A stretch of DNA of 32,000 bases from Hyphomicrobiaceae bacterium (GCA_036380915.1 DASVDU010000153.1:15590-47589); one strand, 5' to 3'. Counted from the stretch's first letter, positions 7,715 to 30,831 are shown. Notes: generated from the sequence alone by a model not told the origin. Translations and numbers: made by a program.

Positions 7715-7723
7715 CGCCCTCTC

Positions 7724-8200
7724 CTAGAGTCCCAGAGCGTCTTCGAGCGGCCCTTTGAGGAGGGGCGTCTGGAAGCCGATTTCGAGAATAAGGTACAGGG
7801 AGACAGCCATGCCAATGGCGACGAGCGCCGAAAAACCGGCGCGATAGCCGCCCTGGAATTTCATGCTGGCGAAAAGATAAAGCGCCATCCCGACATAAAG
7901 CCCCACCCAGAGGGAGACGGCGACAAGGGCGACGATGGGAAGGGAGAAGAAGATAACCGAGCGCAGTTGCGCGGATGTCAGAAAACTCTCGTCGCGGTAC
8001 GCCCGCTGGATCAGCGTCTGAAAAATAATGCCGACACCGGCAACCGTGACGATGAGGCCGACGTAAAAGGGAAATGTGCCTGGCTCTGGGCCGGACGGGC
8101 TCCAGCCCACGCCAAATTCCAAGGCACCGAGGGTGATGATGAGGCCAAACACCGCGACGATGATGGCCATCACCAATTCGGCTCCGAAGCGCGAAATCAT
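7724..8200 (-). CDS. tctB: TTT small membrane subunit TctB
   Basis: Internal ATG at 8200 (MISRFGAELVMAIIVAVFG...) of track ORF 7724..8329. The longer form would overlap tctC. Four predicted TM helices, about 158 aa, positioned between tctC and tctA. Confidence 0.8.
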   Translation of the reverse strand: MISRFGAELVMAIIVAVFGLIITLGALEFGVGWSPSGPEPGTFPFYVGLIVTVAGVGIIFQTLIQRAYRDESFLTSAQLRSVIFFSLPIVALVAVSLWVGLYVGMALYLFASMKFQGGYRAGFSALVAIGMAVSLYLILEIGFQTPLLKGPLEDALGL

Positions 8201-8267
8201 CCGCAACCGCTCCAGGAGAGAAGGCGGGGCCGAAGCCCCGCAGAATTGAACCCGCGAGGAAGGCTGG

Positions 8268-9263
8268 TCATTTGACCAGCCAACCCTCCTTCTCGAACAC
8301 CTGCTTGTTCTTGGCTTCGTCGTCGGCAATGAACTTGGCGAGCTCGTCGCCGGACATGAAGCGTGCGGTCTGCACCGTGCGGGTGACGTACTCTTTCCAC
8401 TCTGGTGTCTCGCTCACCTTCTTGAAAAGCTCCGTGTAGAAGGCGACCGCGTCGGCAGGCACGTTGGCCGGCAGCCAGATCGTGCGCGGCATCTGGAAGC
8501 TATCGATCGGAATGCCTTCATCCTTGCAGAGCGGGATGTCCGACCAGCCCATGTCGCCCGTGACCTTCGGGCCCTCGGGCAGACGGGTCGGGCTAAACAC
8601 GCACAGCGGACGGACCTGGCCTGCTTTCCACTGGCCAATGTTCTCGTTCGGGTTGTTCGTATTGGAATCGATATGGCCGCCGGCGAGCTGTACCGCTGCG
8701 AGGCCGCCGCCGTTGAAGGGCACGTAGATGAATTTCGCGCCAGTCGCGGATTCGATAAGGCTCACCAGCGTCTGGTCCGTATCCTTCGACTGGCTGCCGC
8801 CCATCTTCAGAGTTTCGGGTTTGGCCTTGGCGGCGGCGATGTAGTCTTTGGCCGTCTTATATTCCGAGCCGGCATTGACCCACAGCAGGAATTCATCGAG
8901 CGCCATGGCGGCGACGGGCGTCAGATCCGACATCTTGAACGCCACGTTGGCGACGTAAGGCAGAAGATAGGCGTTGTTGGTGCCGAAGATCACCTTATGT
9001 GGATCCCCGGCCGCACCGCGCGCATAAATATAGCCTTCAGCTCCGCTGCCGCCGCCCTTGTTGGTGACGATGATCGCTTCATCGAGGAGCTTGTTCTTGG
9101 TGATGGCCGACTGAACGACGCGAGCGAAGTTGTCCGTGCCGCCGCCGGCCCCGGCAGTCACGACGAACTCGATCGATTTCGTCGGCTCCCAGGCGTGAGC
9201 CGCCGGAACACCGAGCATCGATACTGCGGCAGCAATACCGATCAATTGGCGAACGTGGAGCAT
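8268..9263 (-). CDS. tctC: TTT periplasmic substrate-binding protein (TctC/Bug family)
   Basis: Signal peptide MLHVRQLIGIAAAVSMLGVPAAHA, then the Bug-family block EFVVTAGAGGGTDNFARV. The ATG at 9263 has AGAGGA 8 nt upstream. The alternative ATG at 9290 has no SD. Confidence 0.9.
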   Translation of the reverse strand: MLHVRQLIGIAAAVSMLGVPAAHAWEPTKSIEFVVTAGAGGGTDNFARVVQSAITKNKLLDEAIIVTNKGGGSGAEGYIYARGAAGDPHKVIFGTNNAYLLPYVANVAFKMSDLTPVAAMALDEFLLWVNAGSEYKTAKDYIAAAKAKPETLKMGGSQSKDTDQTLVSLIESATGAKFIYVPFNGGGLAAVQLAGGHIDSNTNNPNENIGQWKAGQVRPLCVFSPTRLPEGPKVTGDMGWSDIPLCKDEGIPIDSFQMPRTIWLPANVPADAVAFYTELFKKVSETPEWKEYVTRTVQTARFMSGDELAKFIADDEAKNKQVFEKEGWLVK

Positions 9264-16415: not shown

Positions 16416-16578
16416 AACAATTCGACCGTCTCAAGTTGGTCAGCGAAACGTGCCGGCAGTTGGGGAGTTCCAAGGCCTAACAGACTAGCCCCAGCTCGGT
16501 TGGAGCCGCCCCAGGCAACGAGAGGCGGGGCGGGCTCGACCAGATCACGGCTCCACAACCGCTCGATCGCGATCGTCA

Positions 16579-16823
16579 AAATCGCAGTTGCACCTCCGCG
16601 TCAATAAACTTGACCGTATTCGATGGCCCGGTCTCCTCGATGAAGCGACCGGGCTCGAATACGGAGAAAGCGGCTCCGATGTCGACACCGCGGGCCGGCG
16701 ACCAGGCGAGCACCACCTCGCTTTGCGTGCCGATCTAACGGGCTTTGCTGTCGCCCGATGCCCGGAGCAGGTTCCCGGGCCCCGGTAGACGCCGTCTTTC
16801 AGGCTTTCGCGCCAGAAGAACAC
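16579..16823 (-). pseudogene. Remnant of an outer-membrane beta-barrel gene (alginate-export/AlgE-like C-terminus), interrupted and 5'-truncated
   Basis: My own minus-strand translation reads ...GNLLRASGDSKAR*IGTQSEVVLAWSPARGVDIGAAFSVFEPGRFIEETGPSNTVKFIDAEVQLRF-stop (stop at 16576-16578). The ending in an aromatic residue and the FxPGxF..TG motif resemble alginate-export family C-termini. There is an in-frame TAG at about 16735-16737, and upstream sense continues only in another frame. There is no start and no N-terminal part. Confidence 0.35.
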
Positions 16824-16885
16824 GGATGAAATGCAGTCAAGCGCTGATGAGGCGAAGCCTTCGGCTACCGTACCGTCGGAGTAAT

Positions 16886-17158
16886 TTAGCTGCCCCGCTG
16901 CTCGCAGACACCGTGCCGCCGCAGCACGTTCTCGATGTCAGCGACGGTCCGGATCTCCATCATCTCGTCCATGGAGAGTTGGATGGCAAACGTCTCCTCG
17001 AGACAGCGCACCAAAGCGATGTGCTGGAGAGAATCCCACCGGGAGACGTCATCCGGCGAGGTCGACGGCGCCAGCGGCCCGCTGTACTGGAAGACGTCCT
17101 CGAAAATGGCCGCAAGCTGCGGGTAGGCAATCCCATTGGCCGAAGTGGACGGGCCCAT
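16886..17158 (-). CDS. Acyl carrier protein (stand-alone, partner of the FkbH-like enzyme)
   Basis: 90 aa. The WDSLQHIALVRCLEETF block has the phosphopantetheine Ser in a DSL motif (Ser codon 17030-17032). Its ATG directly abuts the TGA of the upstream FkbH-like gene (TGAATG). Confidence 0.8.
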   Translation of the reverse strand: MGPSTSANGIAYPQLAAIFEDVFQYSGPLAPSTSPDDVSRWDSLQHIALVRCLEETFAIQLSMDEMMEIRTVADIENVLRRHGVCEQRGS

Positions 17159-19378
17159 TCACGTCTCCCATTGAACGACGACGAAGTTGGACCCCGGCAG
17201 GCCGGCCTTGCCGATCGTCCAACTCCAAGTGGTTTGACTGGGCCCGGTCGATACCTCCCGAAAGCCCAGCGAAGAGTAGAGGTCGCGAACCTGGCCGTTC
17301 TTGGCCGATGGAACGTAGGTGCCCGTGACCTCGCGCACGCCGCGCCGGCCGAGCTCTTCCAGCAGGGCCCCCATGAAGGCGCGCTCGATTTCGCGGCCGA
17401 TCACGCGGCAGCTCATCAAGAAGGTGAGGATTTCCGCGGCGGCCCCATCGATGCGCGCGGTCGCGGCGATGACGATGCCGTGATTACCGAAACGGTCGCT
17501 GGCCCGCCCCTGGAGGACCAAATAATGCTGCTCGTCCGCGATCATGGCGCCGAGATCGGCTTCCGTATAGCGCACCGTGGTGAGGTTGAACTGGTTTGTC
17601 CGCTGATGGAGCTGCGCGACCCGAGACAGTGTCGCGGAACGGACCGGCCCGACATGGAGCCGCTGCTCGAGCCCGCGGAGGTAGTCTGAGAGGCTGACGG
17701 CCTGCGCACGAAACTGCCTGCTGGCGCGCTCGGCGGCGTACATCTCGGCCCGCCGCTCGTCCTCAGCCGTGAGCCGCACCGGCCACGTCACGGCAAGGCT
17801 CCGCAGCCACAGCGGACGCTGGGCCGGATCGGCGGGCATCTCGGGCACCACCACCTCCGGACACACTTGGCGCATGGCCTCACGCTCGTGCGGACTGTCG
17901 TCGAGAAAAAGGAAGCTGTCGAGCCCGAGATTGAGCTCGGCGGCGAGCTTGCGGATGTTCTCGGGCTTCGGGTTCCAGTCGATGGCGGTCGCTGCAAAGT
18001 CGTCGGCCCGCAATACCATTCCCGGGTGGCGATCGAAGACCGTGATGGCATCGGGATCGTTCTTGCTGAGAGCGGCGAGGAGCATGCCCTGCCGCTTCAG
18101 CCGCAGGCATTCCTGCTGGAACGTGCTGAAGGCATTGCCGGGAAACTCAGGACCGCACACCAATGCGCCGAGACCGTCGTCGCCGTAGACGCCGCCCCAG
18201 AGCGTATTGTCGAAGTCGAGCGCCAGAACCTTCAGAGGGCCGCGCTTCAACAGATGCCACGCCTCGGCAAATCTCCTGGCGAGCGCCCGCGATGCTGCAG
18301 CGGAATAGGCGATGCGGCCGTAGTACCAGAGCTTGGGATCGGTCTGTTGGGCCAGCGGCAGCTTGGCGAGCGCGGAGTCTGCGTCGCAGACGACGATCCG
18401 GCCAGATCGCTCCGCAGCATCCAGAATGCGCTGATTGACGAGATCGATGGCGCCCCGCAGGCCGAGGGCATGGCGGCGGTCGAGCAAGCCCGCCGTCGGC
18501 GCCGGGGCGGACGGAATGGTGTTGATGAGCAGCGGATGTTGAGCGCGCTCTGCAAAGGCGGTCAAAGCGGAGGCGAGAAGATCAGCCCGCTCGCGGACCA
18601 GCTCCAGGCCTTCGTCTGCCGGACGGCGCCAGTCGCGTGCAGCGAATCCGTCAAAATCCATGAGCAGAACGAGCCCGTCGCAATCCGCGGCCGGGCGGAG
18701 CAGCTCGGCGAGGCCTTCACCGAAATTGGCCTCGCTGACCCGAGCCTGCCAGCCTTGCGCCGCAAAGGCAGGGACGAGATCCTGCGCCAGCGTATGAGTG
18801 GTCGAAAATCCACACAGGCGAATTCGCGCGATCTGCAAACCTTGGCGGTAGTGATCGAGTGGAGCTGCCGCAGACGTCAGCACACGCGGGGCCACGTCAT
18901 GAACGGAGAGCGCCAGCTCCGCGGCCTCGTCGTTCCAGCCCAGGGCCTGCAGCCGCTTCACGATCGCGGCGAGGACATCGCCGTCGCCGCTCTCGCGATG
19001 GCACAGCCTCCGATGGATGGCAGCGAACGCGCGCCGCTCGGCCGCCGAGCCGGTGGCGCGGTTGAGTTCGTCCAATGCCGCGAGCTCCTCCGGCAAGGCC
19101 CTGACGAGCTCGCCCGGCAGGACATGCCCAGCTAAGACCAGCGCACGAGAGAGCCAGCTCGGAACACGCACGTGGTGCGCTTCGAGATCCTGGAGCATCG
19201 TCCCGACGCGGTCCGGCGCGACGCGGGTCCAATCGACCCCCTGCAAGAGCACGCCCGCGCGCAGGCAGTCCGCCGCCGACGCAATAGCAGCCTCGACCAG
19301 TTGGTCGGCTGTCGTCGGAGTCCGCGCGCCGGTCTCCCGCGGGCGATCAGCACCCTGGTGTGCATCGCTGAGTGACAC
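17159..19378 (-). CDS. FkbH-like HAD-IIIC phosphatase/acyl-ACP loader with an N-terminal extension of about 180 aa
   Basis: 739 aa, GTG start with GGAGG 4 nt upstream. HAD motifs are LALDFDNTLWGG (motif I), LAALSKND (II) and FLFLDDSPHERE (III/IV). The FkbH signature HQRTNQFNLTT is present. The C-terminal GNAT-like fold carries FLMSCRVIGREIE (Cys codon 17408-17410), the position used for the acyl-S-enzyme intermediate in FkbH-type enzymes. Confidence 0.9.
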   Translation of the reverse strand: MSLSDAHQGADRPRETGARTPTTADQLVEAAIASAADCLRAGVLLQGVDWTRVAPDRVGTMLQDLEAHHVRVPSWLSRALVLAGHVLPGELVRALPEELAALDELNRATGSAAERRAFAAIHRRLCHRESGDGDVLAAIVKRLQALGWNDEAAELALSVHDVAPRVLTSAAAPLDHYRQGLQIARIRLCGFSTTHTLAQDLVPAFAAQGWQARVSEANFGEGLAELLRPAADCDGLVLLMDFDGFAARDWRRPADEGLELVRERADLLASALTAFAERAQHPLLINTIPSAPAPTAGLLDRRHALGLRGAIDLVNQRILDAAERSGRIVVCDADSALAKLPLAQQTDPKLWYYGRIAYSAAASRALARRFAEAWHLLKRGPLKVLALDFDNTLWGGVYGDDGLGALVCGPEFPGNAFSTFQQECLRLKRQGMLLAALSKNDPDAITVFDRHPGMVLRADDFAATAIDWNPKPENIRKLAAELNLGLDSFLFLDDSPHEREAMRQVCPEVVVPEMPADPAQRPLWLRSLAVTWPVRLTAEDERRAEMYAAERASRQFRAQAVSLSDYLRGLEQRLHVGPVRSATLSRVAQLHQRTNQFNLTTVRYTEADLGAMIADEQHYLVLQGRASDRFGNHGIVIAATARIDGAAAEILTFLMSCRVIGREIERAFMGALLEELGRRGVREVTGTYVPSAKNGQVRDLYSSLGFREVSTGPSQTTWSWTIGKAGLPGSNFVVVQWET

Positions 19379-19387
19379 GCCCCCTCC

Positions 19388-20659
19388 TCACACCATCACT
19401 TCGCCGCCGGTGACCAGCAGGTTCTCGCCCGTGATGAATGCGGCATAGGGAGAAACCAGCATCAGCACTGCACCGGCGACGTCCTCGGTGGTCGCCAGCC
19501 GCCGCAGGGGGGTTCTCGCCACAACCATCTGCCGCACGCGATCAGGCACGTTGGCCACGAGATCGGTATCGACCATCGACGGGGACACCATGTTCACCCT
19601 GACACCCTGCGGCCCGAGCTCCTGTGCCAGGTTCTTGCTCATGGCGAGCAGTGCTGCCTTGCCGGTGACATAGGGGAGCCAGTGATGCGCTGTGCGGCCC
19701 AGCGCCGCCGAGGTCAGGACGTTGACGATCACGCCACGGCTCGCCTTGAGCGCGGGCAATGCAGCCTGTGTGACCCGAAATGCGCTGCCGACGATTGCGT
19801 CGTGCGCTGACGACATATCGTCCCAGCCGAGCCGGTCGAACGAGGCCGAATGAATTTTCGGACCGGCATTATTGACGAGAATGTCGAGCCGGCCGTCGTC
19901 CGCAACCGCCGCAAGGAGGCGGTCGACGTCGTGCTGGTCGGTGACATCGGCCCTCACGATCCGGCAGCGCCCGCCTGCGGCTGAAATCTCTGCCGCCAGA
20001 TCGTCGGCTGCCGCGCTGCTCTTATAATAATTGATCCACACGTGGGCGCCGTGCCGGGCGAGAAGTCGCGCCACGGCACGACCGATACCGCGCGAGGCAC
20101 CCGTCACGAGAGCCTTGCGGCCGGCCAGCAGTCCCTCTCCACGAGGCGTCGACTCCGGCTCCGGGTGGCTGTCTTCTGCGAGCCGGAGCACCTTGACCTG
20201 GGCACGGCCGCGCAGAACGCATTCCCCGTGCTGGTTGAGGATTTCGGTGCAGAGCGTAACGAGGCGGGTATCGCGATCGATCTTCTCGACTGTGGCGCGC
20301 GCCTCGACCGTGTCGCCGATGAAAACGGGCCGCGTGAACTCGATGGTCTGCGAAGTATAGAGCGCGCCGCGCCCCGGCAGCTTGGTCCCGATCAATGTCG
20401 AAAGCAGGCTCGCGTGCAGAAAGCCGTGGACGACTCTTTGCGCGAATTCTGTCCGGGCCGCGAACTCTTCGTCGAGGTGCAGCGCATTGTAGTCTCCCGA
20501 CAGCCGCGCAAACGCAGCGACATCGTCGGACGTGATCGTCCGCGACACGCTTTCGGTCTGCCCCACCTGCAGCTCGAGAAGGCGGTCCTGGCTGCCTGTC
20601 ATCTGTCCACGATCAAGTGAGTCCTGCGACGGGGTTAGCCAGGGAGTCGGGGGAAGCAC
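19388..20659 (-). CDS. Fusion protein: N-terminal MaoC-like (R-specific hydratase/dehydratase hot-dog) plus C-terminal classical SDR (FabG-like ketoreductase)
   Basis: Hot-dog part: ITSDDVAAFARLSGDYNALHLDEEFAARTEFAQRVVHGFL. Linker: AEDSHPEPESTPRGEG. SDR part: ALVTGASRGIGRAVA, LVNNAGP and a Ser...YVTGK triad. Start is GTG at 20659 (GAGG 4 nt upstream) or ATG at 20602. The stop lies 9 nt before the FkbH-like start. Confidence 0.85.
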   Translation of the reverse strand: MLPPTPWLTPSQDSLDRGQMTGSQDRLLELQVGQTESVSRTITSDDVAAFARLSGDYNALHLDEEFAARTEFAQRVVHGFLHASLLSTLIGTKLPGRGALYTSQTIEFTRPVFIGDTVEARATVEKIDRDTRLVTLCTEILNQHGECVLRGRAQVKVLRLAEDSHPEPESTPRGEGLLAGRKALVTGASRGIGRAVARLLARHGAHVWINYYKSSAAADDLAAEISAAGGRCRIVRADVTDQHDVDRLLAAVADDGRLDILVNNAGPKIHSASFDRLGWDDMSSAHDAIVGSAFRVTQAALPALKASRGVIVNVLTSAALGRTAHHWLPYVTGKAALLAMSKNLAQELGPQGVRVNMVSPSMVDTDLVANVPDRVRQMVVARTPLRRLATTEDVAGAVLMLVSPYAAFITGENLLVTGGEVMV

Positions 20660-20802
20660 TTGACCTCGGTTAAGCGCACGCCTGAGCGACTAGGCTAGAC
20701 GGACGGATTGCGGCGGTCGCGCGCCGGGCCATCGGGGGAGTGGCTCGGCGGCTTCGTCGCGATCGTTGCGCATATCGCGCGTTCAACGAGGGAAAGCGCT
20801 TC

Positions 20803-21081
20803 ATGCCATCAACGTTCGAGACGGTCGCCGGGATCATTGCTGCGACCAGCGACATTCCGATCGAGCAGATCACCCCGGACAGCCACGTCATGAAGGATCT
20901 GGAGATCGACAGCCTGGCGTTCCTCGACATCACCTTCGAGATCGACCGGCGGTTCGGTATCGAAGTGCCGCTCGATCGCTGGCTCGAGCAGGTCAACGAG
21001 GGAAAGGTCAAAAGCGAGGACTACTTCGTTCTGCGCAACCTCTGTGCACAGATCGATAGCCTCAGGGCGGCCGCGGCCTGA
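20803..21081 (+). CDS. acpXL: Specialised acyl carrier protein AcpXL (lipid A very-long-chain fatty acid carrier)
   Basis: Internal ATG at 20803 of track ORF 20740..21081, with GAGGGA upstream. The 92-aa product [13 protein letters not shown]...[52 protein letters not shown] closely follows my recollection of rhizobial AcpXL, including the C-terminal extension absent from AcpP. Ser codon at 20911-20913. Confidence 0.9.
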
Positions 21082-21096
21082 CCTGCTGATCGGGCC

Positions 21097-21567
21097 ATGC
21101 TTCTCGAGCGCTTCCAGATGCTGGATCGGGTCGATGCGTTCGACAGGGAGGGCGCGTCGCTGAGGGCCTTCGCGTCCGTGCCCGAGGAAAGCCCGATCTT
21201 CGAGGGGCATTTTCCAGGGCATGCGCTCATGCCGGGCGTGCTGCTTCTGGAGGCGATGGCTCAAGCCTCGGGCTATCTGTTGCTGGCGCTCGGTGGCTTT
21301 TCGCGCATGCCATTCTTCGCCAACGTCAAGTCGGCGAACTTCAGGTCGTTCGTGCTGCCGGGCGACCAGCTCGTCATCGAGGCGGAGCGTGTGCACGCCG
21401 GGTCCGGCTACGCTGTCATGAGCTCACAAATTCTGCGCGGCGGCACGCGCGTCAGCGATGCGCAGATGACCTTCCGGCAGGTGCCGTTCCCGGTGCCCGC
21501 GCTCGAGCAGCATGTCCGGCGCGAGGGGGAGCGACTGGGCTTCTTCGGATTGGCGGACAGCCGATGA
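21097..21567 (+). CDS. fabZXL: FabZ/FabA-like 3-hydroxyacyl-ACP dehydratase of the acpXL cluster
   Basis: 156 aa with the hot-dog active-site block FEGHFPGHALMPGVLLLEAMAQ. Located 15 nt after acpXL. Its stop overlaps the next start (ATGA at 21564). Confidence 0.9.
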   Translation: MLLERFQMLDRVDAFDREGASLRAFASVPEESPIFEGHFPGHALMPGVLLLEAMAQASGYLLLALGGFSRMPFFANVKSANFRSFVLPGDQLVIEAERVHAGSGYAVMSSQILRGGTRVSDAQMTFRQVPFPVPALEQHVRREGERLGFFGLADSR

Positions 21568-22784
21568 GCGCCCTGCCCCATCAGGTCTGGATCACGGGGA
21601 TCGGCCTTGTCAGCTCGCTGGGCGAAGGTGTCGAGGCCCATTGGGAATGTCTCACCGGCAGCGCGCAGCCGCGGCCGGTGGTCGACGAAACGCGCTTTGC
21701 CCCTTACCCGGTCCACCCCCTGACGAAGCTCGACATCGCGCGACAGATCCCCAAGACGAGCGATCAACGGCAAATGGAGCAGTGGCAGCGCACCGGCGTC
21801 TACGCTGCGGGTTTGGCCCTGACTGACGCCGGGATCGCGGGCGACACGGAGCTCCTCGATCGCACCGACGTGGTCACCGCGGCTGGCAACGGCGAGCGTG
21901 ACTTGGAGCTCGATGCGCGAGTGCTGGAGACGATCGGGGGTGAGGCGCAGCCGGATGTCTATCTGAACAAGGCGCTTGCGACCGGGCTGCGGCCGACGCT
22001 CTACCTCGGCCAGCTTTCAAACCTGCTGGCGGGAAATATCTCGATCATCCACAAGGCCAGGGGCTCGTCGCGCACGTTCAAGGGTGAGGAGATGGCGGGA
22101 GTCGCGGCGGTCGAAAATGCCGTGCGTCGCATCGCCCACGGCGAATCGGACGTCGTTCTGGTCGGTGCCGCACTCAATGCCGAACGCGAGGATCTGCTGC
22201 TCGGCTACGAGCTCGACGGCTCCCTGCTTCGTGGCCCGTTCCGTTCCGTCTGGGTGCGCGACGCCAACGGCGGCTTCGTGCCGGGCAGCATCGGTGTCTT
22301 CCTCGTCCTCGAATCGGAGCTGCACGGCGCTTTCCGGGGCGCGACGCCGTACGCAGCCATTACGGGCATCGCATCGGATCGGGCGCGCCGCGAAGCCGAG
22401 CCCGTTTCCAATACCGCAATGGAGCTTTTCGATCGTATCGTCGATGGCTTGCGTCCAGGACCGCTGCCGGTCTTGAGCGGCGCCAGCGGCGTGGAGCCGA
22501 TCACCAGCCAGGAGCGGGCCTTCCTGAAACAACTCGAATCGCGCGATTGGCCCCTGGCCGTTCGCGCCTATGGCTCCGTCCTCGGGCATTCGGTCGAAGC
22601 GCATTTCATTACCGGCGTGGCGCTCGCGGCAATGGCGGTGTCGCGACGGAGCTTCTTTGCGCCATTCGATGCGTCCGATGTCGAGCGGCCGTTCCAGGGC
22701 GTGCCGCGCCGTGTCCTCGTCACCGGCTTCGGCCACTGGCGCGGCGAAGGACTGGCACTCCTCGAAGCGGCGGATTGGGACTGA
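21564..22784 (+). CDS. fabF2XL: Beta-ketoacyl synthase-like protein lacking the active-site Cys (FabF2XL type; candidate KS-beta/chain-length-factor subunit)
   Basis: 406 aa with a thiolase-fold KS-like N-terminus VWITGIGLVSSLGEG. Where the partner has TACASG this ORF reads TFKGEEMAG. Where the partner has NAHGTSTP it reads LSGASGVEP. It occupies the canonical position after fabZXL. Confidence 0.85.
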   Translation: MSALPHQVWITGIGLVSSLGEGVEAHWECLTGSAQPRPVVDETRFAPYPVHPLTKLDIARQIPKTSDQRQMEQWQRTGVYAAGLALTDAGIAGDTELLDRTDVVTAAGNGERDLELDARVLETIGGEAQPDVYLNKALATGLRPTLYLGQLSNLLAGNISIIHKARGSSRTFKGEEMAGVAAVENAVRRIAHGESDVVLVGAALNAEREDLLLGYELDGSLLRGPFRSVWVRDANGGFVPGSIGVFLVLESELHGAFRGATPYAAITGIASDRARREAEPVSNTAMELFDRIVDGLRPGPLPVLSGASGVEPITSQERAFLKQLESRDWPLAVRAYGSVLGHSVEAHFITGVALAAMAVSRRSFFAPFDASDVERPFQGVPRRVLVTGFGHWRGEGLALLEAADWD

Positions 22785-22785
22785 A

Positions 22786-24066
22786 ATGGCCAGGCCCATC
22801 CGAGATCATCTGGGGCGCCGCGTCGTCGTCGTGACGGGCATGGGTCTCATCACGGCGCTTGGACGCGGCAAGGCCGAGAACTGGGCAGGTGTCATAGCCG
22901 GGCGATCCGGGCTGAAGCGCATCTCGCGCTTCCCGACGGAAAACCTGCGGTCGACTGTGGCGGGAACCGTCGATTTCATGGACGTCAACCCGTATTCCGC
23001 CCACGACCTGTCGCTGGCGATGGCGATCGCAACGGCCGAGGAAGCCCTCGCAGAGGCCCGCATCGAGAGCCGCGCGTTTCCAGGCCCTTTGATTGTCGCG
23101 ACACCACCCTCCGAGTTCGAATGGCCGCTGCTCCGGAAGTTGCATGACGAAAGCCCCGAGCCGGAGCGCAGTGGCTACGCCCGCCTGCTGGCGGCGGCAC
23201 GCACCGGCAATTACCGCGACATGGCGCGTCATCTGAGGTTCGCCAGCATCGCCGACCGGCTGAAGGAGCGCTTCGGCTGCCGCGGCGAGCCGCTGTCCAT
23301 CTGCACGGCCTGCGCCTCTGGAACGACGACCATCCAGCTCGGGCTCGAGGCGATCCGCCGCGGCGAGGCGGATGCCGCACTGTGCATCGGCACGGATGCT
23401 ACGGTGCACCCGGAAGGCTTGATCCGCTTCTCGCTTCTGTCGGCGCTCTCCACACGGAACGATCCGCCGGAGAAGGCCTCCAGGCCGTTCTCGAAAGATC
23501 GCGACGGCTTCGTCATTGCCGAGGGTTCCGGCGCCCTCGTCCTGGAAGCTTATGAGAGCGCCCGCGCCCGTGGCGCACCGATCCTCGCCGTGGTGCGGGG
23601 TTGCGGTGAGAAGGCGGACGACTACCACCGCACGCGGTCGCGCCCGGATGGCACGGCCATCATCGGCGCTATCCAAAAGACGCTCGACGATGCCGGCGTC
23701 GCGCCGGACGAGATCGACTACATTAACGCGCACGGCACCAGCACGCCGGAGAACGACAGGATGGAGTACCTGTCGCTCAAGGCCGTGCTGGGCGATCGCC
23801 TGCACCAAGTTCCGATCAGCTCCAACAAGTCGATGGTCGGGCACACGCTGATCGCCGCCGGATCGGTCGAAGCCGTCTTCTCGGTGCTGACGCTCCAGAA
23901 CGGCCTGCTGCCGCCGACGATCAATTACGACATTCCCGATCCCGAAATTCCCTTGGACGTCGTGCCAAACGAGGCGCGCGCCGCAAAAGTCAGGACGGTG
24001 CTGTCGAACTCGTTCGGCTTCGGCGGTCAGAACGCGTGCGTCGTCTTCTCGGGAGAGCCGGAATGA
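22786..24066 (+). CDS. fabF1XL: Beta-ketoacyl-ACP synthase II-like condensing enzyme with complete Cys-His-His triad (FabF1XL type)
   Basis: ATG at 22786, 1 nt after the fabF2XL TGA. 426 aa. Motifs are SICTACASGTT (Cys codon 23311-23313), YINAHGTSTPENDRME, SNKSMVGHTLIAAG and NSFGFGGQNA. Confidence 0.9.
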   Translation: MARPIRDHLGRRVVVVTGMGLITALGRGKAENWAGVIAGRSGLKRISRFPTENLRSTVAGTVDFMDVNPYSAHDLSLAMAIATAEEALAEARIESRAFPGPLIVATPPSEFEWPLLRKLHDESPEPERSGYARLLAAARTGNYRDMARHLRFASIADRLKERFGCRGEPLSICTACASGTTTIQLGLEAIRRGEADAALCIGTDATVHPEGLIRFSLLSALSTRNDPPEKASRPFSKDRDGFVIAEGSGALVLEAYESARARGAPILAVVRGCGEKADDYHRTRSRPDGTAIIGAIQKTLDDAGVAPDEIDYINAHGTSTPENDRMEYLSLKAVLGDRLHQVPISSNKSMVGHTLIAAGSVEAVFSVLTLQNGLLPPTINYDIPDPEIPLDVVPNEARAAKVRTVLSNSFGFGGQNACVVFSGEPE

Positions 24067-25145
24067 CAGTGAATCCAACGACGGCGCCGCGGGAAGTCGA
24101 TGAGGCAGGGCGCACCTCCATGCGCGCCATCGAGGTGCGGGGGGAGCGGCAGCTTGCGATCATCGAAACGGAGCGGCCGCCAGCACCCGGTCCAGGTGAA
24201 GTGCAGGTGCGCATCGGCGCCGTTGCTTTGAACCACATCGATGTTTGGGGCTGGCGCGGCATGGCGTTCGCGCGTCGCAGGCTGCCGCTCATCGCCGGTG
24301 CCGAGGCCGCCGGCGAGATCGTGAAGGTGGGACCGGCCGTCGAGCAGTTGCGGCCAGGCGACATCGTCGCGCTTTACGGCGCCCACACCTGCGGGATCTG
24401 TCCAGCCTGCCGCGAGGGCCGCGACAACTTCTGCACGGCGCAGGACAATATCTACGGCTTCCATATCGACGGGTTCGCGCGAGAGCTGATGAATATCCCG
24501 GCGCGCCTTGCCGTCCGGGCGCCCTATGGCGTCGACGTGACGGGTGCTGCGCTGGCAGCCATCACCTTTGGCACGCCGGAGCATATGCTGTTCGATAACG
24601 CCCGGCTGAGGGAGGGCGAGACGGTGCTCGTGCACGCGGGCGGCAGCGGCATCGGCTCGGCTGCGATTCAGCTCGCCAAGGCGGCCGGGGCGACGGTGAT
24701 CACGACCGTCGGGAGCGACGAGAAGGCTGCGAAGGCCAAAGCTTTGGGCGCCGATCACGTTATCAACTACCGGGAAGAGCGCTTCGAAAGGCGCGTTCGG
24801 CAGATCACGGGTCGGCGCGGCGTCGAGGTGGTGTTCGAGCACGTGGGCTCAGACACGTGGGAGGGCAGCATGCTTTCGATGAAGCGCGGTGGCCGCCTGG
24901 TGACGTGCGGCTCGACCACCGGCATCAGCGCCAAGATCAACCTCTTCATGCTCTTCCAGCAACAGCTTCGGCTAATCGGAAGCTTCGGCTGCACGATGGC
25001 CAATATGCGCAGCGCAATGGCCAAGATGGCCCAGCGCCAAGTGCGGCCCGTCATCGATACCGTGATCCCGATCGGTCAGATCGAAAGGGGGCTGCAGCGG
25101 CTCGAGAGCCGTCAGGTATTCGGCAAGATCATCCTTACATTGTGA
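24063..25145 (+). CDS. adhA2XL: Zinc-type medium-chain dehydrogenase/reductase (AdhA2XL-like)
   Basis: ATGA overlap with fabF1XL. 360 aa. Motifs are GEVQVRIGAVALNHIDVW, the structural-Zn Cys cluster CGICPACREGRDNFC and the Rossmann block VLVHAGGSGIGSAAIQLAKAAGA. It occupies the canonical position in acpXL clusters. Confidence 0.85.
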   Translation: MTVNPTTAPREVDEAGRTSMRAIEVRGERQLAIIETERPPAPGPGEVQVRIGAVALNHIDVWGWRGMAFARRRLPLIAGAEAAGEIVKVGPAVEQLRPGDIVALYGAHTCGICPACREGRDNFCTAQDNIYGFHIDGFARELMNIPARLAVRAPYGVDVTGAALAAITFGTPEHMLFDNARLREGETVLVHAGGSGIGSAAIQLAKAAGATVITTVGSDEKAAKAKALGADHVINYREERFERRVRQITGRRGVEVVFEHVGSDTWEGSMLSMKRGGRLVTCGSTTGISAKINLFMLFQQQLRLIGSFGCTMANMRSAMAKMAQRQVRPVIDTVIPIGQIERGLQRLESRQVFGKIILTL

Positions 25146-25165: not shown

Positions 25166-26398
25166 ATGCCAGGAAATCCGCGAGAAGTCTGGGTCACGGG
25201 AATCGGGCTCGTCTCCTCCCTCGGCGAAGGCATCGAAGCTCACGCTGCCCTGCTCTCACCCGCCGCGCGTCCGGCCCCAATACTGAACGAGAGCGCCTAT
25301 GCCCCATATTCGGTGCACCCGCTCGCGCCGCTCGATCTCTCAAAGCAAATTCCGAAAAAGAGCGATCAGCGGCAGATGGAGGGCTGGCAGCGCATCGGCG
25401 TCTACGCGGCGGGCCTGGCCCTTGCTGATGCGGGCATCGCCGGCAACGCGGAGCTGCTCGACCGGACAGGCCTCGTCGTCGCCGCCGGGAGCGGCGAGCG
25501 CGACACGGCGGTCGATTGCACCGTGCTCGAAAAGCTCGACGGCCGGGAGGATACAGGCGTGCTGGCCAAGGAGGTCCTGCCAAGCGCGCTCCGTCCAACC
25601 CTGTTTCTTGCTCAGCTCTCCAACCTTCTCGCCGGCAACATCTCGGTGGTCCACAACGTCACCGGCTCGTCGCGCACCTTCATGGGCGAGGAGATGGCCG
25701 GGCTCGCCGCCGCAGAGAATGCGGTGCGCCGCATTGCGGCCGGCCAGGGCGACCTCTTCCTCGTCGGCGGCTCGCTCAACGCCGAGCGGGAGGATCTGCT
25801 GCTCGGCTACGAGCTTGGCCACAACTTGTGGCGCGGACCGTTCCGTCCGGTGTGGGAGCGGCACGAGGCGGGAGGCGGTTTCGTGCCGGGAAGCGTCGGA
25901 GCATTCCTGGTGCTCGAAGCCCGCGGTCATGCCGAGGCGCGCGGGGCGAGGCCTTACGCGAAAGTGACAGGCGTCGTTTCCGATCGCTGCAATCGCACCC
26001 ATGGCGAAGCGGCAGAATTGGGACTACGGCTGTTCGCGACCCTGTGCAGCGGCTTGTCGGATGGGCCATTGCCGGTGCTGAGCGGCGCCAGCGGGGTGGC
26101 ACCTGTGACGCAGCAGGAGCTGGACTTCCTGCGAGCTTTGGATTCGGGCGGCTTCGATCCGATCATCCGCGCCTACGGCAGTCTCGTCGGGCATGGCGTC
26201 GAGGCCCATCTCGCCACCGGAATGGCCCTCGCAGCGCTAACGATCTCGCGCCAAAACTTCCTGCCGCCGCTCGATGATTCCGGGGTCGAGCGCCCGTTCG
26301 AAGGCGACCCGGGACGGGTGTTGGTGACGAGCTTCGGCCATTGGCGCGGTGAAGGGCTGGCGCTCATCGAGGCCGTTGCCGAAGGGGGCACACGATGA
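25166..26398 (+). CDS. Second FabF2XL-like Cys-less KS-like protein (paralogue of 21564..22784)
   Basis: Internal ATG at 25166 of track ORF 24857..26398, with GGAGCGGGG upstream. 410 aa, colinear with the first copy: VWVTGIGLVSSLGEG, SRTFMGEEMAG, LSGASGVAP and FGHWRGEGLAL. Confidence 0.85.
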   Translation: MPGNPREVWVTGIGLVSSLGEGIEAHAALLSPAARPAPILNESAYAPYSVHPLAPLDLSKQIPKKSDQRQMEGWQRIGVYAAGLALADAGIAGNAELLDRTGLVVAAGSGERDTAVDCTVLEKLDGREDTGVLAKEVLPSALRPTLFLAQLSNLLAGNISVVHNVTGSSRTFMGEEMAGLAAAENAVRRIAAGQGDLFLVGGSLNAEREDLLLGYELGHNLWRGPFRPVWERHEAGGGFVPGSVGAFLVLEARGHAEARGARPYAKVTGVVSDRCNRTHGEAAELGLRLFATLCSGLSDGPLPVLSGASGVAPVTQQELDFLRALDSGGFDPIIRAYGSLVGHGVEAHLATGMALAALTISRQNFLPPLDDSGVERPFEGDPGRVLVTSFGHWRGEGLALIEAVAEGGTR

Positions 26399-27660
26399 GG
26401 GACAGCAAAGGGCGGCCCGTGGTCGTGGTCACAGGAACCGGCGTCGTCACCTCCCTGGGGCTCGGAAAGGCGGAGAACTGGGCGAAGCTCACATCCGGCT
26501 GCTCCGGCATCCGCCGGATCAGCCGCTTTCCGACGGATGGTCTGCGTACCACGATCGCAGGCACGGTTGATTTTTTGGATGTCACGCCGTTTTCCGCTCC
26601 CGCGCTGACCATGGCCATGGCGGCTGCAGCGGCGGAGGAAGCGCTCGCGGAAGCGGAGATCGGCGAGAAGGGAGCGTTTCCCGGGCCTCTGTTCCTCGCC
26701 ACGCCACCAGCCGAGCTCGAGTGGCCGCAGCGCCGGCTGCTGTGGGAAGCACACGCTGGCGGCGAGCTCACGGGCTATAAGCGTCTGCTCGCGGCGGCAC
26801 GCGAAAGCCGCCACGCGGACCTTCAGGAAAAGTTCCAGTTCGCGAGCGTCGCCGAGCACCTGGCATGCCGGTTCGGGACGCGTGGCCTGCCGGTCTCCGT
26901 GTCGACCGCCTGCGCCTCGGGCGCGACCGCGATCCAGCTCGGAGTCGAGGCGATCCGGCGCGGGGAAACCAATGCCGCGCTGTGCATCGGCACCGACAGC
27001 TCCGTGCAGCTCGAGGCGCTGATCCGGTTCTCGCTCCTCTCTGCACTGTCGACCCGCAACGATCCCCCCGAAGCAGCATCGCGTCCGTTCTCGAAGGACA
27101 GGGACGGCTTCGTCATGGCAGAGGGCGCCGGCGCGCTGGTCCTGGAGTCCTACGAGCGGGCCCGCGCCCGCGGCGCTCAGATCCTCGGCGTCGTCAAAGG
27201 CTGCGGTGAGAAAGCCGACGACTATCACCGCACGCGATCGAGGCCCGATGGCACCGCTATCATCGGTGCCATCCGCAATGCCATCGAGGACGCCGGCATC
27301 GCGCCTCACGAGATCGACTATATCAACGCCCACGGCACCAGCACGCCGGAGAACGACAAGATGGAATACCTGTCGCTCAAGGCCGTCCTGGGCGACCACT
27401 TGGAGAAGACTCCGATCAGCTCCAATAAATCCATGATCGGCCACACGCTGTCGGCCGCAGGTGCGATCGAAGCCGTCTTTTCGCTGCTGACCATCCGCAC
27501 GGGCGTCGTGCCGCCGACCATCAATTACCGCAATCCCGATCCAGCTATTCCGCTCGACGTGGTGCCGAACGAGGCGCGCCGGGCCACGGTCAGAACGGTC
27601 CTGTCGAACTCGTTCGGTTTCGGCGGCCAGAACGCGTCGCTGATCCTGGCCGCACTATGA
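26395..27660 (+). CDS. Second FabF1XL-like beta-ketoacyl-ACP synthase with Cys-His-His triad (paralogue of 22786..24066)
   Basis: ATGA overlap with the preceding gene. 421 aa. Motifs are VSTACASGAT (Cys codon 26911-26913), YINAHGTSTPENDKME, SNKSMIGHTLSAAG and NSFGFGGQNA. Confidence 0.9.
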   Translation: MRDSKGRPVVVVTGTGVVTSLGLGKAENWAKLTSGCSGIRRISRFPTDGLRTTIAGTVDFLDVTPFSAPALTMAMAAAAAEEALAEAEIGEKGAFPGPLFLATPPAELEWPQRRLLWEAHAGGELTGYKRLLAAARESRHADLQEKFQFASVAEHLACRFGTRGLPVSVSTACASGATAIQLGVEAIRRGETNAALCIGTDSSVQLEALIRFSLLSALSTRNDPPEAASRPFSKDRDGFVMAEGAGALVLESYERARARGAQILGVVKGCGEKADDYHRTRSRPDGTAIIGAIRNAIEDAGIAPHEIDYINAHGTSTPENDKMEYLSLKAVLGDHLEKTPISSNKSMIGHTLSAAGAIEAVFSLLTIRTGVVPPTINYRNPDPAIPLDVVPNEARRATVRTVLSNSFGFGGQNASLILAAL

Positions 27661-27672
27661 TCGGGGGAAATC

Positions 27673-28617
27673 GTGATCGCATCTCAATGGCATTTTCGCG
27701 TCATCGCTTGGCGCGGCGAGGCGCACCCCAGAAGCCGTTCCGCCTCATCTTCCGACAAGGTCGGAGCGGTGGTGGCCCTCGCCGCACTGGCCGCCGTATG
27801 CGCGACCAGCACGCTGCCGGTCATCGAAGCCAAGCAGGAAGCACCTGAAGCGGCAGTCGCCCGCACCGGTCCGCTGACCGATCGCGAGACCTTCATCGGC
27901 GCCTATACAGGCGCGCCCTACACGTATTCGAGCAACCTGCATTTCCAGAGGCCGGACGGCTCGGAACTCACGATCAACGACGTGGCCTGGGACGGCAAGC
28001 CGTTCGACGATCCCATCTATTACGGCGCGAGGGTGATCCGCTGGACCGCCATGTCCCGGATCGGAAGCATGTTCGACTTCACGCACGGGAAGGCCTATTC
28101 GCAGCCCGAGCAGGAGGTGAGCGTTACCGGGAAAGGCGAGCCAGAGACGAAGAAAATCAGCGACATCTTCCATAAGCTCGAGTTCACGCACGGGCACAAC
28201 ATGCTGACCCTGAACGGGTTGTTCCGGCTGCCGTGGGGCACCAGCGCGATCAAGCCCTACGTCGGCCTCGGGGCAGGCATCTCAGTTCCGCACACGGAGG
28301 TGCAGTTCCGCGGCGAGCGCGGGCGCACGTACGAATATCAGTTCACCGGCCCTGTTCTGCAGGTGGTCGGCGGCTTGGAGCTCCGGGTGCCGCGGCTGTC
28401 CTACTTCGTAGAGTACAAATTCACGATTGCGCCGTACCGCGCGCCGCTGCACCTGCGTGACGGCAGCCTGGCCTTCGCGGATCTCTGGCACCAGTTCCTG
28501 CGCTGGTGGGAGGGAAGCGAGCCGGCCGGCGGCTGGCTGACGACCCGCCTCACGAGCCATCAGGTGATCGCCGGCATGGGCTATCGCAGTGGCAATGTTC
28601 TAGCCGCAGGTCCGTAG
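27673..28617 (+). CDS. Outer-membrane beta-barrel protein, tentatively LpxQ (lipid A oxidase)-like
   Basis: GTG at 27673 with GGGGGA upstream, 12 nt after the preceding stop. There is a hydrophobic signal-like segment VGAVVALAALAAVCATSTLPVIEA. Alternating beta-strand patterns include YVGLGAGISV, LQVVGGLELRV and SYFVEYKFTI. AWDGKPFDDPIYYGARVIRW resembles the W-E/D-G-x-x-F..P.YYG.R block I recall from lipid A oxidase family proteins. That recollection is unverified. The FTHG motif occurs twice. Confidence 0.55.
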   Translation: MIASQWHFRVIAWRGEAHPRSRSASSSDKVGAVVALAALAAVCATSTLPVIEAKQEAPEAAVARTGPLTDRETFIGAYTGAPYTYSSNLHFQRPDGSELTINDVAWDGKPFDDPIYYGARVIRWTAMSRIGSMFDFTHGKAYSQPEQEVSVTGKGEPETKKISDIFHKLEFTHGHNMLTLNGLFRLPWGTSAIKPYVGLGAGISVPHTEVQFRGERGRTYEYQFTGPVLQVVGGLELRVPRLSYFVEYKFTIAPYRAPLHLRDGSLAFADLWHQFLRWWEGSEPAGGWLTTRLTSHQVIAGMGYRSGNVLAAGP

Positions 28618-28689: not shown

Positions 28690-30204
28690 TCAGCCGCGTC
28701 CTGTTGTCAGCCTGTGCCAGATCGCATCGACCCGCTGCACGACCTCCGGACTCATCGTCAGCACGCGGCCCCACTCGCGCTCGGTTTCGGGGCCGATCTT
28801 GTTCGTCGCGTCGATCCCGAGCTTGCCGCCGAGCCCCGGCTTCGGTGAGGCGAAGTCGAGATAGTCGATCGGCGTGTCCGCGATGGTCACCAGATCGCGC
28901 GCCAGATCGGCCCTTGTGGAGATGGCCCAGATCACATCGGCCCAATTGCGCACATCGATGTCCGGGTCCACCACCACGATCATCTTGGTCAGCGTGAACT
29001 GCGGCAGCGCGGACCACAGCCCCAGCATCAGCCGCCGGGCCTGCCCCGCATAGCGTTTGCGGATGGAGACCACGGCCATACGGTAGGAGCAGGCCTCCGG
29101 CGGCAGATGGAAATCCTCGATCTCGGGAAACTGCTTGCGCAGCAACGGCACCAGCAGGCGGGCGAAGACCTCACCGATCACCGACGGCTCGTCGGGTGGC
29201 CGGCCTGTGTGGGTGGAGAGATAGATCGGCGCGCGCCGGTGCGTGATGGCCGTCACCTGCATCACGGGAAACGGCTCGACCGAGTTGTAATAGCCGGTGT
29301 GATCCCCGTACGGCCCTTCGGGCGCGGTCTCGCCGGGTGAAACGGTCCCCTCGATGACGATTTCTGCGTCGGCAGGAACGGGCACCGGCACGGTTATCCC
29401 CGGCGCAACCCGCGTGCTCCGGCCACGGAGCAGACCTGAGAAGGTGAGCTCGGACATGGCTTCGGGAATTGGCATGGCGGCGGCGAGCATCAGAGCCGGA
29501 TCGGCACCGATGGCGATGGCGATCGGCATCGCCTCACCCTTCGCCCGCCATTGCGCATGATGGCGCGCGCCACCCCTGTTTGCCAGCCAGCGCACGATGA
29601 GGCGATCGCGACCCAGCACCTGCAGCCGATAGACGCCGACGTTGGTTCGGCCCGGGGCGTAGTCGCCCGGCGGCGATGTCACGACGAGCGGCCACGTGAT
29701 GAGCGGCGCCGGCTCGCCCGGCCAGCAGGTTTGGATCGGGAGTGTCGATAGATGGACCCGGTCACCCTGGCAGACGACCTCCTGCACGGGTGCCGATCGT
29801 GCGGCCACCGAGCGGGTCGCCAGTGCGGCGCGCAGCAATGGCCATCGGCGAAATGCATCGCGGAAATCGCTCGGCGCCTCGGGCTGGCGCAGCCACGCCA
29901 TCGCTTCCCCGAGGGCATCCAGACCGTCGGGCGTGACGCCAAGGCCCATGGCCACGCGCTCGCGCGTTCCGAACAGGTTGACCAGCACCGGAATGTCCGA
30001 GGTTCGGCCGTCAGCCATGACGGCTCGCTCGAACAGGAGCGCGGGGCCGCCGGCCCGCAACATGCGCCGGTGCACCTCCGTCATCTCATGAACCAGCGAG
30101 ACCGGCTCGTCGACGCGCATCAGCTGGCCCGACCGGTCAAGGTGGGCGATGAAGGCTCTGAGATCGGGGAATGGCGGCAGGCTGCGTAGCGACACCCAAG
30201 GCAC
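28690..30204 (-). CDS. ubiD: UbiD-family (prenylated-FMN-dependent) decarboxylase, probably 4-hydroxy-3-polyprenylbenzoate decarboxylase
   Basis: 504 aa. The N-terminus DLRAFIAHLDRSGQLMRVDEPVSLVHEMTEVHRR, plus GPYGDHTGYY and the C-terminal DATNK..E block, match the UbiD family. Divergent from ubiTUV. No ubiX in the window. Confidence 0.8.
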   Translation of the reverse strand: MPWVSLRSLPPFPDLRAFIAHLDRSGQLMRVDEPVSLVHEMTEVHRRMLRAGGPALLFERAVMADGRTSDIPVLVNLFGTRERVAMGLGVTPDGLDALGEAMAWLRQPEAPSDFRDAFRRWPLLRAALATRSVAARSAPVQEVVCQGDRVHLSTLPIQTCWPGEPAPLITWPLVVTSPPGDYAPGRTNVGVYRLQVLGRDRLIVRWLANRGGARHHAQWRAKGEAMPIAIAIGADPALMLAAAMPIPEAMSELTFSGLLRGRSTRVAPGITVPVPVPADAEIVIEGTVSPGETAPEGPYGDHTGYYNSVEPFPVMQVTAITHRRAPIYLSTHTGRPPDEPSVIGEVFARLLVPLLRKQFPEIEDFHLPPEACSYRMAVVSIRKRYAGQARRLMLGLWSALPQFTLTKMIVVVDPDIDVRNWADVIWAISTRADLARDLVTIADTPIDYLDFASPKPGLGGKLGIDATNKIGPETEREWGRVLTMSPEVVQRVDAIWHRLTTGRG

Positions 30205-30242
30205 CTCCGGCGCGATCCTGGGCGGCGGCCCGGGAGCGCGCC

Positions 30243-30256
30243 TTAACCCCGGTCAA
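30243..30256. promoter_or_regulatory. FNR/FixK-like box with one mismatch (TTAAC-CCCG-GTCAA versus TTGAY-N4-RTCAA)
   Basis: Read directly in the 87-bp ubiD/ubiT divergent gap. The right half-site is perfect. The left half has A instead of the conserved G. The centre lies about 42 nt from the ubiT ATG and about 45 nt from the ubiD ATG. Confidence 0.3.
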
Positions 30257-30291
30257 GGAGGCGCACGGATGACTGACCTACCAAGCACCTC

Positions 30292-30831
30292 ATGCCGAAC
30301 GCACCTCAGCTCCCGGCCCTTCTGACCAGCGCCATGCGCCTGCTGCCAACGCAGCCGCTCGAGCTGGCGCTCGACCGGCTGACGAAATCGATCGCACAGC
30401 GTCATCCTGACCTGTTCGATCGCCTGGGTGAGCATTCCCACAAGGCCATCGGCATCGCTCCAACGGATGTTCCGGTGATCTTCGTGCTGATGCCGGATCG
30501 GGAAGCGCCGCGTGTCGAGGTGAAGCGGACGGACTCGGCGCCCGCTTGCGATGCATCGATCGTCGGACCCTTATTCGCCCTCGTCGACATGGCCGAGGGG
30601 CGGCTCGATGGCGATGCGCTCTTCTTCTCGCGGGACATTCGCATCGAGGGCGACGTCGAGGCGGTCCTTGCACTGCGCAATGCACTCGACGGTGAAGGGC
30701 TCGATCTCATCAGGGAGGCAACGGCACCGCTCGGGATACTCGCCGCCGGCCCGGAGCTGATCGGCCGGCGTTGCCTCAACCTCCTGCGATCGGCTCTTCA
30801 GACCGCACCGGCAGAGGAGACCCCGTTTTGA
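30292..30831 (+). CDS. ubiT: SCP2-domain ubiquinone biosynthesis accessory factor UbiT
   Basis: 179 aa. The SCP2-like core is ...IFVLMPD...ASIVGPLFALVDMAEGRLDGDALFFSRDIRIEGDVEAVLALRNALD (compare E. coli YhbT DPDTLFFQRRLVIEGDTELGL). It lies immediately upstream of two U32-family genes, and its stop overlaps the ubiU start. Confidence 0.8.
   Translation: MPNAPQLPALLTSAMRLLPTQPLELALDRLTKSIAQRHPDLFDRLGEHSHKAIGIAPTDVPVIFVLMPDREAPRVEVKRTDSAPACDASIVGPLFALVDMAEGRLDGDALFFSRDIRIEGDVEAVLALRNALDGEGLDLIREATAPLGILAAGPELIGRRCLNLLRSALQTAPAEETPF

Follow-up and report, generated by a model that had tools for sequence, protein, structure and literature searches.

A predicted lactate-starter cassette divergent from an AcpXL-type fatty-acid synthase with two ketosynthase pairs in Hyphomicrobiaceae

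Three tightly packed minus-strand genes in the genome of a Hyphomicrobiaceae bacterium encode a dedicated acyl carrier protein (ACP2), an FkbH-family protein and a fusion of a MaoC-type hot-dog dehydratase (DH) with a short-chain dehydrogenase/reductase (SDR) of predicted ketoreductase (KR) function. [quoted passage not shown] The chemistry and the protein families involved are each known; what is new is the arrangement, in which a predicted, free-standing lactate-starter cassette accompanies a duplicated type II VLCFA synthase and an FNR-type box. The three genes are as follows.

16886-17158, minus strand: ACP2, dedicated carrier protein, 90 aa (PF00550, PP-binding, 29.6 bits)
17159-19378, minus strand: FkbH-family protein, 739 aa (TIGR01686, 270.4 bits)
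19388-20602, minus strand: MaoC hot-dog dehydratase::SDR ketoreductase fusion, 404 aa (Pfam; orthologue lengths)

The ACP2 gene abuts the FkbH gene with a gap of 0 nt, as it lies directly 3' of the FkbH gene in all orthologous loci, and 9 nt separate the FkbH gene from that of the fusion. The phosphopantetheine site of ACP2 is Ser43 in a DSL motif (17030-17032). The longest ORF of the fusion spans 19388-20659 with a GTG start at 20659; translation most likely starts instead at the ATG at 20602, giving 404 aa, because orthologues measure 400-408 aa. This places 200 bp between the fusion ATG at 20602 and the divergent acpXL ATG at 20803. An earlier note on this DNA had described three minus-strand ORFs with 0- and 9-nt gaps, their motifs and the positions of the DSL serine and the MSCRV cysteine, all of which hold, and the domains that it expected were matched by TIGR01686, TIGR01681, MaoC_dehydratas, adh_short_C2 and PP-binding profiles. 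The region that it assigned to the trio, 16886-20802, does contain the three genes, but its end at 20802 takes in intergenic DNA past the fusion start at 20602.

The FkbH-like protein matches TIGR01686 over aa 382-707 with 270.4 bits against a curated cutoff of 146.65, and the HAD-IIIC profile TIGR01681 is also passed; the Pfam scan gave no match for it. The motifs DFDNT, SKND, FLDDSPHE, RTNQFN and MSCRV are present, and Cys657 is encoded at 17408-17410. Residues D388/D390/T392, S438-K439-N440, D493-D494 and C657 are invariant among 12 FkbH orthologues. An AlphaFold2 (AF2) model of the protein (pLDDT 81) resolves, together with Foldseek comparison, into four domains:

aa 22-180 (window 18839-19315), minus strand: helical domain, all-helical and well predicted (AF2)
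aa 181-380, minus strand: BF1531-like alpha/beta domain (AF2/Foldseek)
aa 383-530, minus strand: HAD phosphatase domain (AF2/Foldseek and motifs)
aa 572-739, minus strand: GNAT-fold transferase domain with Cys657 (AF2/Foldseek)

Foldseek matched the model to 3slr (E 8e-21) and to GNAT folds, and among the matches listed none gave a fold for the helical domain (aa 22-180). This N-terminal domain is confined to a long-form FkbH clade, as distant FkbH-like proteins align only from about aa 120-270 on; PF21211 (FkbH_N) matches 7 of 8 distant relatives and not the window protein, to which the protein cluster representative P0001 is identical. In the longest ORF of the fusion, MaoC_dehydratas covers aa 37-128 and adh_short_C2 aa 187-419 (Pfam). 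The FabG-like SDR half carries TGASRGIG, NNAG and the S-Y-K triad (S...YVTGK), and the hydratase-2 motif GDYNALH is intact.

A tblastn search of plasmid records led to plasmid p1 of Burkholderia sp. FERM BP-3421, which we take to be the FR901464/spliceostatin producer. On p1 a regulator gene and an acyltransferase (AT) gene are followed by the gene for a giant polyketide synthase (PKS), whose N-terminus is ordered MaoC-type hot-dog(s), SDR, FkbH domain, (ACP), ketosynthase (KS). The match of the window fusion to PKS aa 135-365 (E 2e-18, 32% identity) runs through the hot-dog/SDR junction, and 472 residues of the FkbH-like protein align with the FkbH domain at 32% identity (E 9e-53). The elements DxDNTLW, SKN, DD, RTNQFN and SCRVxGR are kept between the two, and the HAD residues listed above and Cys657 line up. 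On these alignments the trio is a disassembled, free-standing homologue of the characterised lactate-starter loading module, in the order DH, KR, FkbH, ACP. The view that the trio has the parts list for glyceryl-to-lactyl chemistry, put forward earlier by analogy, is thereby strengthened, since the fusion and the FkbH-like protein are homologous to the DH-KR-FkbH region of the PKS in the same order. A similar loading module has been proposed for bryostatin. FkbH-like proteins together with an ACP convert 1,3-bisphosphoglycerate (1,3-BPG) into glyceryl-ACP (PMC7489565), glycerate figures as the FR901464 starter in the reference list of PMC7901079, and in the biosynthesis of both FR901464 and lankacidin the lactyl-S-ACP that serves as starter is made from glyceryl-S-ACP by DH-KR bifunctional proteins (reviewed in PMC4765723). 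That the trio builds a C3 hydroxyacyl-ACP is well supported by these homologies; the unit is most likely lactyl, with glyceryl as the alternative.

On the other side of the intergenic region the window encodes an AcpXL-type system in which the KS and its non-catalytic partner, which resembles a chain-length factor (CLF), occur twice:

20803-21081, plus strand: acpXL-type carrier protein, 92 aa (NF005079, 149 bits, cutoff 83; 61% identity to S. meliloti AcpXL)
21097-21567, plus strand: fabZXL-type 3-hydroxyacyl-ACP dehydratase (PF07977; 51% identity to S. meliloti FabZXL)
21564-22784, plus strand: FabF2XL-like non-catalytic KS partner (CLF-like), pair a (NF005084, 528 bits; Glu for the active-site Cys)
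22786-24066, plus strand: FabF1XL-like ketosynthase, pair a (NF005076, 698 bits; Cys-His-His intact)
24120-25145, plus strand: adhA2XL-like Zn-dependent alcohol dehydrogenase (ADH) (Pfam; 65% identity to the ADH of the S. meliloti cluster)
25166-26398, plus strand: FabF2XL-like non-catalytic KS partner (CLF-like), pair b (NF005084, 536 bits; alignment)
26395-27660, plus strand: FabF1XL-like ketosynthase, pair b (Pfam; Cys-His-His intact; 62% identity to S. meliloti FabF1XL)
27673-28617, plus strand: orf314, secreted or outer-membrane-like, beta-strand-rich (no family match)

When the fusion and AcpXL were used as queries, Hyphomicrobiaceae sequences filled the results and outgroup contexts did not emerge. 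Among full-length FkbH relatives of at least 50% identity every named one belongs to Hyphomicrobium or Hyphomicrobiaceae. DNA upstream of the fusion gene was available in 30 loci (6 from look-ups and a genome scan, 24 from a metagenome scan), and acpXL is divergent from the trio in all 30. Every complete block (9-10 genes) contains fabZXL and two KS/CLF pairs, and the block is kept down to 45% FkbH identity (L119, L123). The linkage of the trio to acpXL and to an extra KS pair, proposed earlier from the window, therefore extends across the lineage. The ADH gene is found in most blocks and is absent from four (L087, L090, L092 and the P0120 contig). The flanks vary and include pqq genes, ubiX/ubiD, genes of Crp-family regulators and, in the window, sulfatase and transporter genes. 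No glycosyltransferase, MBOAT, FabH-like or hexapeptide transferase gene is part of the block, and no candidate transferase is conserved in or beside it across the 30 loci. The window itself is 99-100% identical to a metagenome contig of 1.49 Mb (L096). One further locus, L087 (GCA_050283925.1), is labelled Leptospira interrogans; it carries a Hyphomicrobiaceae-type block, ubi genes and Crp regulators and is probably a contaminated or mislabelled assembly.

The NF005079, NF005084 and NF005076 scores all exceed the profile cutoffs. Alignment places Glu at the position of the active-site Cys in the FabF2XL-like subunits. These subunits of the window share 44-49% identity with the S. meliloti proteins and the FabF1XL-like ones 57-62%. 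Because both window KS paralogues group together in a clade apart from the S. meliloti proteins and from a plasmid-borne pair of Bradyrhizobium, the KS/CLF duplication is, by this comparison, specific to the Hyphomicrobiaceae-type lineage, with both copies kept. The Bradyrhizobium pair (L147, Bradyrhizobium sp. Ash2021 plasmid, 5240-8495), FabF2XL-like and FabF1XL-like, follows a gene for an S-adenosylmethionine-dependent methyltransferase and has no acpXL with it; this extra pair on a plasmid may have a bearing on the variety of VLCFAs in Bradyrhizobium.

Published canonical acpXL clusters end in lpxXL (PMC5613085; PMC11901934), as does that of S. meliloti in L146. The latter record (CP090106.1, 3.7 Mb) is labelled plasmid pSymB and looks chromosomal from its cob genes and canonical acpXL-lpxXL cluster. 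PF03279, the LpxXL family, was matched by none of the window ORFs and in none of five Pfam-annotated contexts; S. meliloti LpxXL had no tblastn match in the window or in about 147 loci, and none within 10 kb of any block. The earlier statement that the canonical cluster lacks an FkbH-like gene is correct for the S. meliloti cluster. Its placing of the trio in a module for lipid A VLCFA stands as regards the linkage to AcpXL and the KS pairs and is not established as regards lipid A, lpxXL not being linked.

The region shared by the two divergent operons contains a conserved element:

20660-20673: FNR/FixK/Crp-type palindrome TTGACCTCGGTTAA, in the divergent trio/acpXL promoter region

The degenerate palindrome pattern has 2 matches in the 32-kb window where 0.03 are expected. 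Six other loci (L001, L087, L090, L091, L092, L093) have a conserved box in the corresponding position; in L006 it is degenerate, and the glycan-context loci described below lack it. The second window match, TTAACCCCGGTCAA at 30243-30256, lies between ubiD (minus strand) and SCP2/U32/U32 genes (ubiT/U/V-like, plus strand; 28690-31823), an arrangement likewise seen in L087 and L090. In E. coli, ubiTUV form two divergent Fnr-controlled operons (PMC10470549). Genes of Crp/FNR-family regulators flank the block in several genomes. Because one promoter region with a conserved FNR/FixK-type box is common to both, the trio and acpXL operons are probably co-regulated through this predicted box and induced at low oxygen. 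Also in L001, L087 and L090, ubiD/X and ubiT/U/V genes occur within 10 kb of the VLCFA block, suggesting that genes for low-oxygen conditions are clustered in this neighbourhood.

Neither a sigma-70-like promoter nor a minus-strand terminator-like site turned up around the trio in simple scans; the sole terminator-like match near it (plus strand, 19833-19848) is no more than shuffled sequences give. Beyond the trio the window continues with SBF transporter, sulfatase and SulP genes, the VLCFA genes being on the other side. The 470 bp from the ACP2 stop to the SBF-family transporter gene (16416-16885) contain no convincing ORF and no terminator-like site; a 92-aa ORF at 16545-16823 has no family match.

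The same cassette occurs in other surroundings. An early-branching subclade of the long-form FkbH family (about 51% identity), with the same fused DH::KR and an ACP, is represented by three independent contigs (L086, L094, L095), where it is part of nonulosonic-acid (NulO) glycan loci with NeuB, NeuC and CMP-transferase genes, an ABC transporter, deacetylases, methyltransferases and TagF-like genes; acpXL and KS genes are absent from these three loci. Further away, 79 distant FkbH-like loci were sampled among the matches listed in a generic FkbH motif scan of genome contigs. MaoC and SDR genes, usually separate, stand beside the FkbH gene in 8 of them, preceding it immediately in seven and closely following it in L083, and an ACP gene was detected beside FkbH in 4/8. 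Their neighbourhoods are enriched in hexapeptide transferase, DegT, GT2, MBOAT and radical-SAM genes. The order in Bradyrhizobium sp. Pha-3 (L056) is MBOAT, an unknown gene, FabH-like, ACP, MaoC, SDR and FkbH, and that on S. meliloti pSymB (L089) is MBOAT, an unknown gene, ACP and FkbH. These two MBOAT-linked cassettes resemble Dlt/Alg-type O-acylation systems and, in rhizobia, may esterify an extracytoplasmic polymer with glyceryl or lactyl groups. An fkbH-domain gene, cj1302, is also part of the flagellar glycosylation locus of C. jejuni (PMC7099621). As relatives occur in glycan loci without acpXL, the cassette is portable and not intrinsically a VLCFA device, and its product is used by different acceptors in different genomes. 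The earlier note had held that finding the trio in relatives solely within glycan loci unlinked to acpXL would count against its proposal; relatives at about 51% identity do lie in such loci, while the Hyphomicrobiaceae-type loci retain the linkage.

Taken together, these observations suggest the following route. 1,3-BPG would be taken onto Cys657 of the GNAT-fold domain of the FkbH-like enzyme, the HAD domain would remove the phosphate, and the glyceryl unit would move to Ser43 of ACP2. The MaoC-type half of the fusion would then convert glyceryl-S-ACP to pyruvoyl-S-ACP, which the SDR half would reduce to lactyl-S-ACP. One of the two KS/CLF-like heterodimers would accept the lactyl unit from ACP2 as a primer, and chain extension on AcpXL would yield odd-carbon (omega-1)-hydroxy VLCFAs. 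That the trio is functionally tied to the AcpXL system is well supported; that it is a portable cassette which makes lactyl-ACP and has been recruited as the source of the primer for an AcpXL-type synthase with a duplicated KS/CLF-like pair is a more tentative reading, to which we give a probability of about 0.45. Since glycosyltransferases, MBOAT, FabH-like and hexapeptide transferases are missing from the conserved block, its two intact KSs with their CLF-like partners, separate proteins encoded in the divergent operon, are the only acyl-accepting enzymes there. Priming of a KS is proposed because of this and because the homologous PKS module hands lactyl to a KS. Both the additional KS/CLF pair and the loss of ADH from some blocks would also fit this proposal; that loss is consistent with an (omega-1)-OH that comes from the cassette. 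We hold less firmly the fuller picture, in which lactate would prime a type II fatty-acid synthase that has a second, dedicated KS/CLF pair and would make odd-carbon (omega-1)-hydroxy VLCFA under FNR/FixK-type low-oxygen control, with delivery not by a linked LpxXL; the destination would then possibly be a lipid other than the classical VLCFA-lipid A.

Several points weigh against KS priming. The hand-over from ACP2 to a KS, and with it the role of starter rather than acyl donor, is something we infer by parsimony, and the substrate, lactyl over glyceryl as the product and the final lipid are likewise predictions. In the glycan loci of the sister subclade (about 51%) the product of the cassette must be an acyl donor and not a primer. 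The link between KS duplication and acquisition of the cassette comes from a single lineage and is effectively one evolutionary event. As lpxXL is unlinked to the block, attachment to lipid A is not established, and the literature searched held no lipid A composition or lipid analysis of Hyphomicrobium. Finally, we name the FERM BP-3421 PKS as Fr9C from the producer strain and the gene order regulator-AT-PKS, and this assignment is presumptive.

The main rival is that lactyl- or glyceryl-ACP2 is a tailoring donor, used by an unlinked acyltransferase on the (omega-1)-OH of the VLCFA or at another position of lipopolysaccharide (LPS) or a glycan. Everywhere else the cassette adjoins transferases of glycan or polymer decoration (NulO/ABC-transporter, MBOAT, FabH-like, DegT, hexapeptide, GT2), and suitable substituents exist: small hydroxyacyl groups are documented as tertiary substituents of VLCFA (PMC11901934) and are indicated by the title of PMC7663294, a 25-OAc is carried by a VLCFA (PMC5613085), and 3-hydroxybutyrate, malate or acetate esterify the (omega-1)-OH in other alphaproteobacteria. 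This explanation nevertheless leaves the duplicated KS/CLF pair without a role and is at odds with the lack of a conserved transferase candidate in or beside the block, so that we regard it as possible but unlikely. It is improbable that the cassette belongs to an unrelated pathway and sits beside acpXL by inherited synteny without functional coupling. All acpXL-linked examples do come from one family-level lineage and the cassette is demonstrably mobile between contexts, yet the block has remained whole through repeated changes on both sides, and the intergenic box is conserved there and missing in the glycan-context subclade.

A further possibility is that FkbH and ACP2 deliver glyceryl as the primer and that the fusion serves as KR and DH in VLCFA elongation on AcpXL, the products being omega,(omega-1)-dihydroxy chains. 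Such a role would fit the resemblance of the SDR half to FabG and the fact that the canonical acpXL cluster encodes no ketoreductase (PMC5613085; S. meliloti L146). However, FabZXL already supplies a dehydratase, the similarity of the fusion to the lactate-starter PKS covers the DH-KR region including the domain junction, and MaoC and SDR accompany FkbH in loci without any KS (8/79 distant loci, 3 glycan loci). A function of the fusion in the elongation cycle was judged unlikely in view of this co-travelling with FkbH, and the glyceryl-primer explanation as a whole is improbable.

The gene next to KS pair b, orf314, has no relatives in Pfam, NCBIfam or the PDB (including a profile search of PDB sequences), and its single-sequence AF2 model is unusable (pLDDT 33). 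It has a signal-peptide-like N-terminus and the conserved motifs DFxHxKA, LEFTHGHN, PHxEV, EYKFT and HQxxAGxGYR. Homologues adjoin the block in L087, L109, L111-113 and L119 in varying position and orientation. It is thus a recurrent but mobile neighbour and may be an outer-membrane accessory of the system, in which its membership is uncertain. A role as LpxXL was ruled out, as orf314 has neither a PF03279 match nor similarity to S. meliloti LpxXL.

If priming of the AcpXL-type synthase by lactyl-ACP2 is correct, a lactyl primer derived from glycolysis would constitute a second, oxygen-independent route to the (omega-1)-hydroxyl of lipid A VLCFA, and odd-carbon (omega-1)-hydroxy chains would be expected whose last three carbons come from glycerate. 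FkbH/lactyl starter chemistry would then extend from secondary-metabolite PKSs to envelope lipid synthesis; to our knowledge, an FkbH-derived C3 starter is known only from polyketide assembly lines, and no paper combining FkbH with acpXL or lipid A was found in the literature searched. One portable cassette would be wired to three kinds of acceptor, namely PKS KS domains, glycan acyltransferases and, by our proposal, a fatty-acid KS. Cultured and sequenced hosts exist in Hyphomicrobium denitrificans and H. nitrativorans NL23.

Among known systems, the FK520 and tetromadurin clusters (methoxymalonyl-ACP and tetronates) share with the window an FkbH-like enzyme and a dedicated ACP and use 1,3-BPG (PMC7489565), the substrate predicted for the window system. 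They also contain dehydrogenases of the FkbK/FkbI type together with an O-methyltransferase, or else a FabH-like tetronate synthase, all of which the window system lacks. The glycan and polymer decoration cassettes (cj1302, S. meliloti pSymB, the NulO loci) have the FkbH-like/ACP core, and MaoC and SDR genes are frequently next to it; they differ from the window block in their genes for glycosyltransferases, for MBOAT or other acyltransferases and for sugar nucleotides, none of which it has. With the canonical cluster acpXL-fabZXL-fabF2XL-fabF1XL-adhA2XL-lpxXL of R. leguminosarum, S. meliloti and A. fabrum the window shares orthologues in the same order; it differs in its duplicated KS/CLF pair, in having no lpxXL, and in the added FkbH cassette, which is divergent and brings a second ACP.

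The FR901464-type module differs in that its parts are joined on one modular trans-AT polypeptide, whereas those of the window are three separate proteins and profile scans of the window ORFs gave no PKS modules. The window fusion has a single hot-dog where the PKS has two, the FkbH-like protein has an extra 180-aa helical N-terminus, and the KSs that are candidate partners come from a type II fatty-acid system of AcpXL type, encoded on the other side of a divergent promoter. Both have the same set of domains in the same order, with sequence homology in the hot-dog/SDR and FkbH parts, and in the PKS a KS follows downstream.

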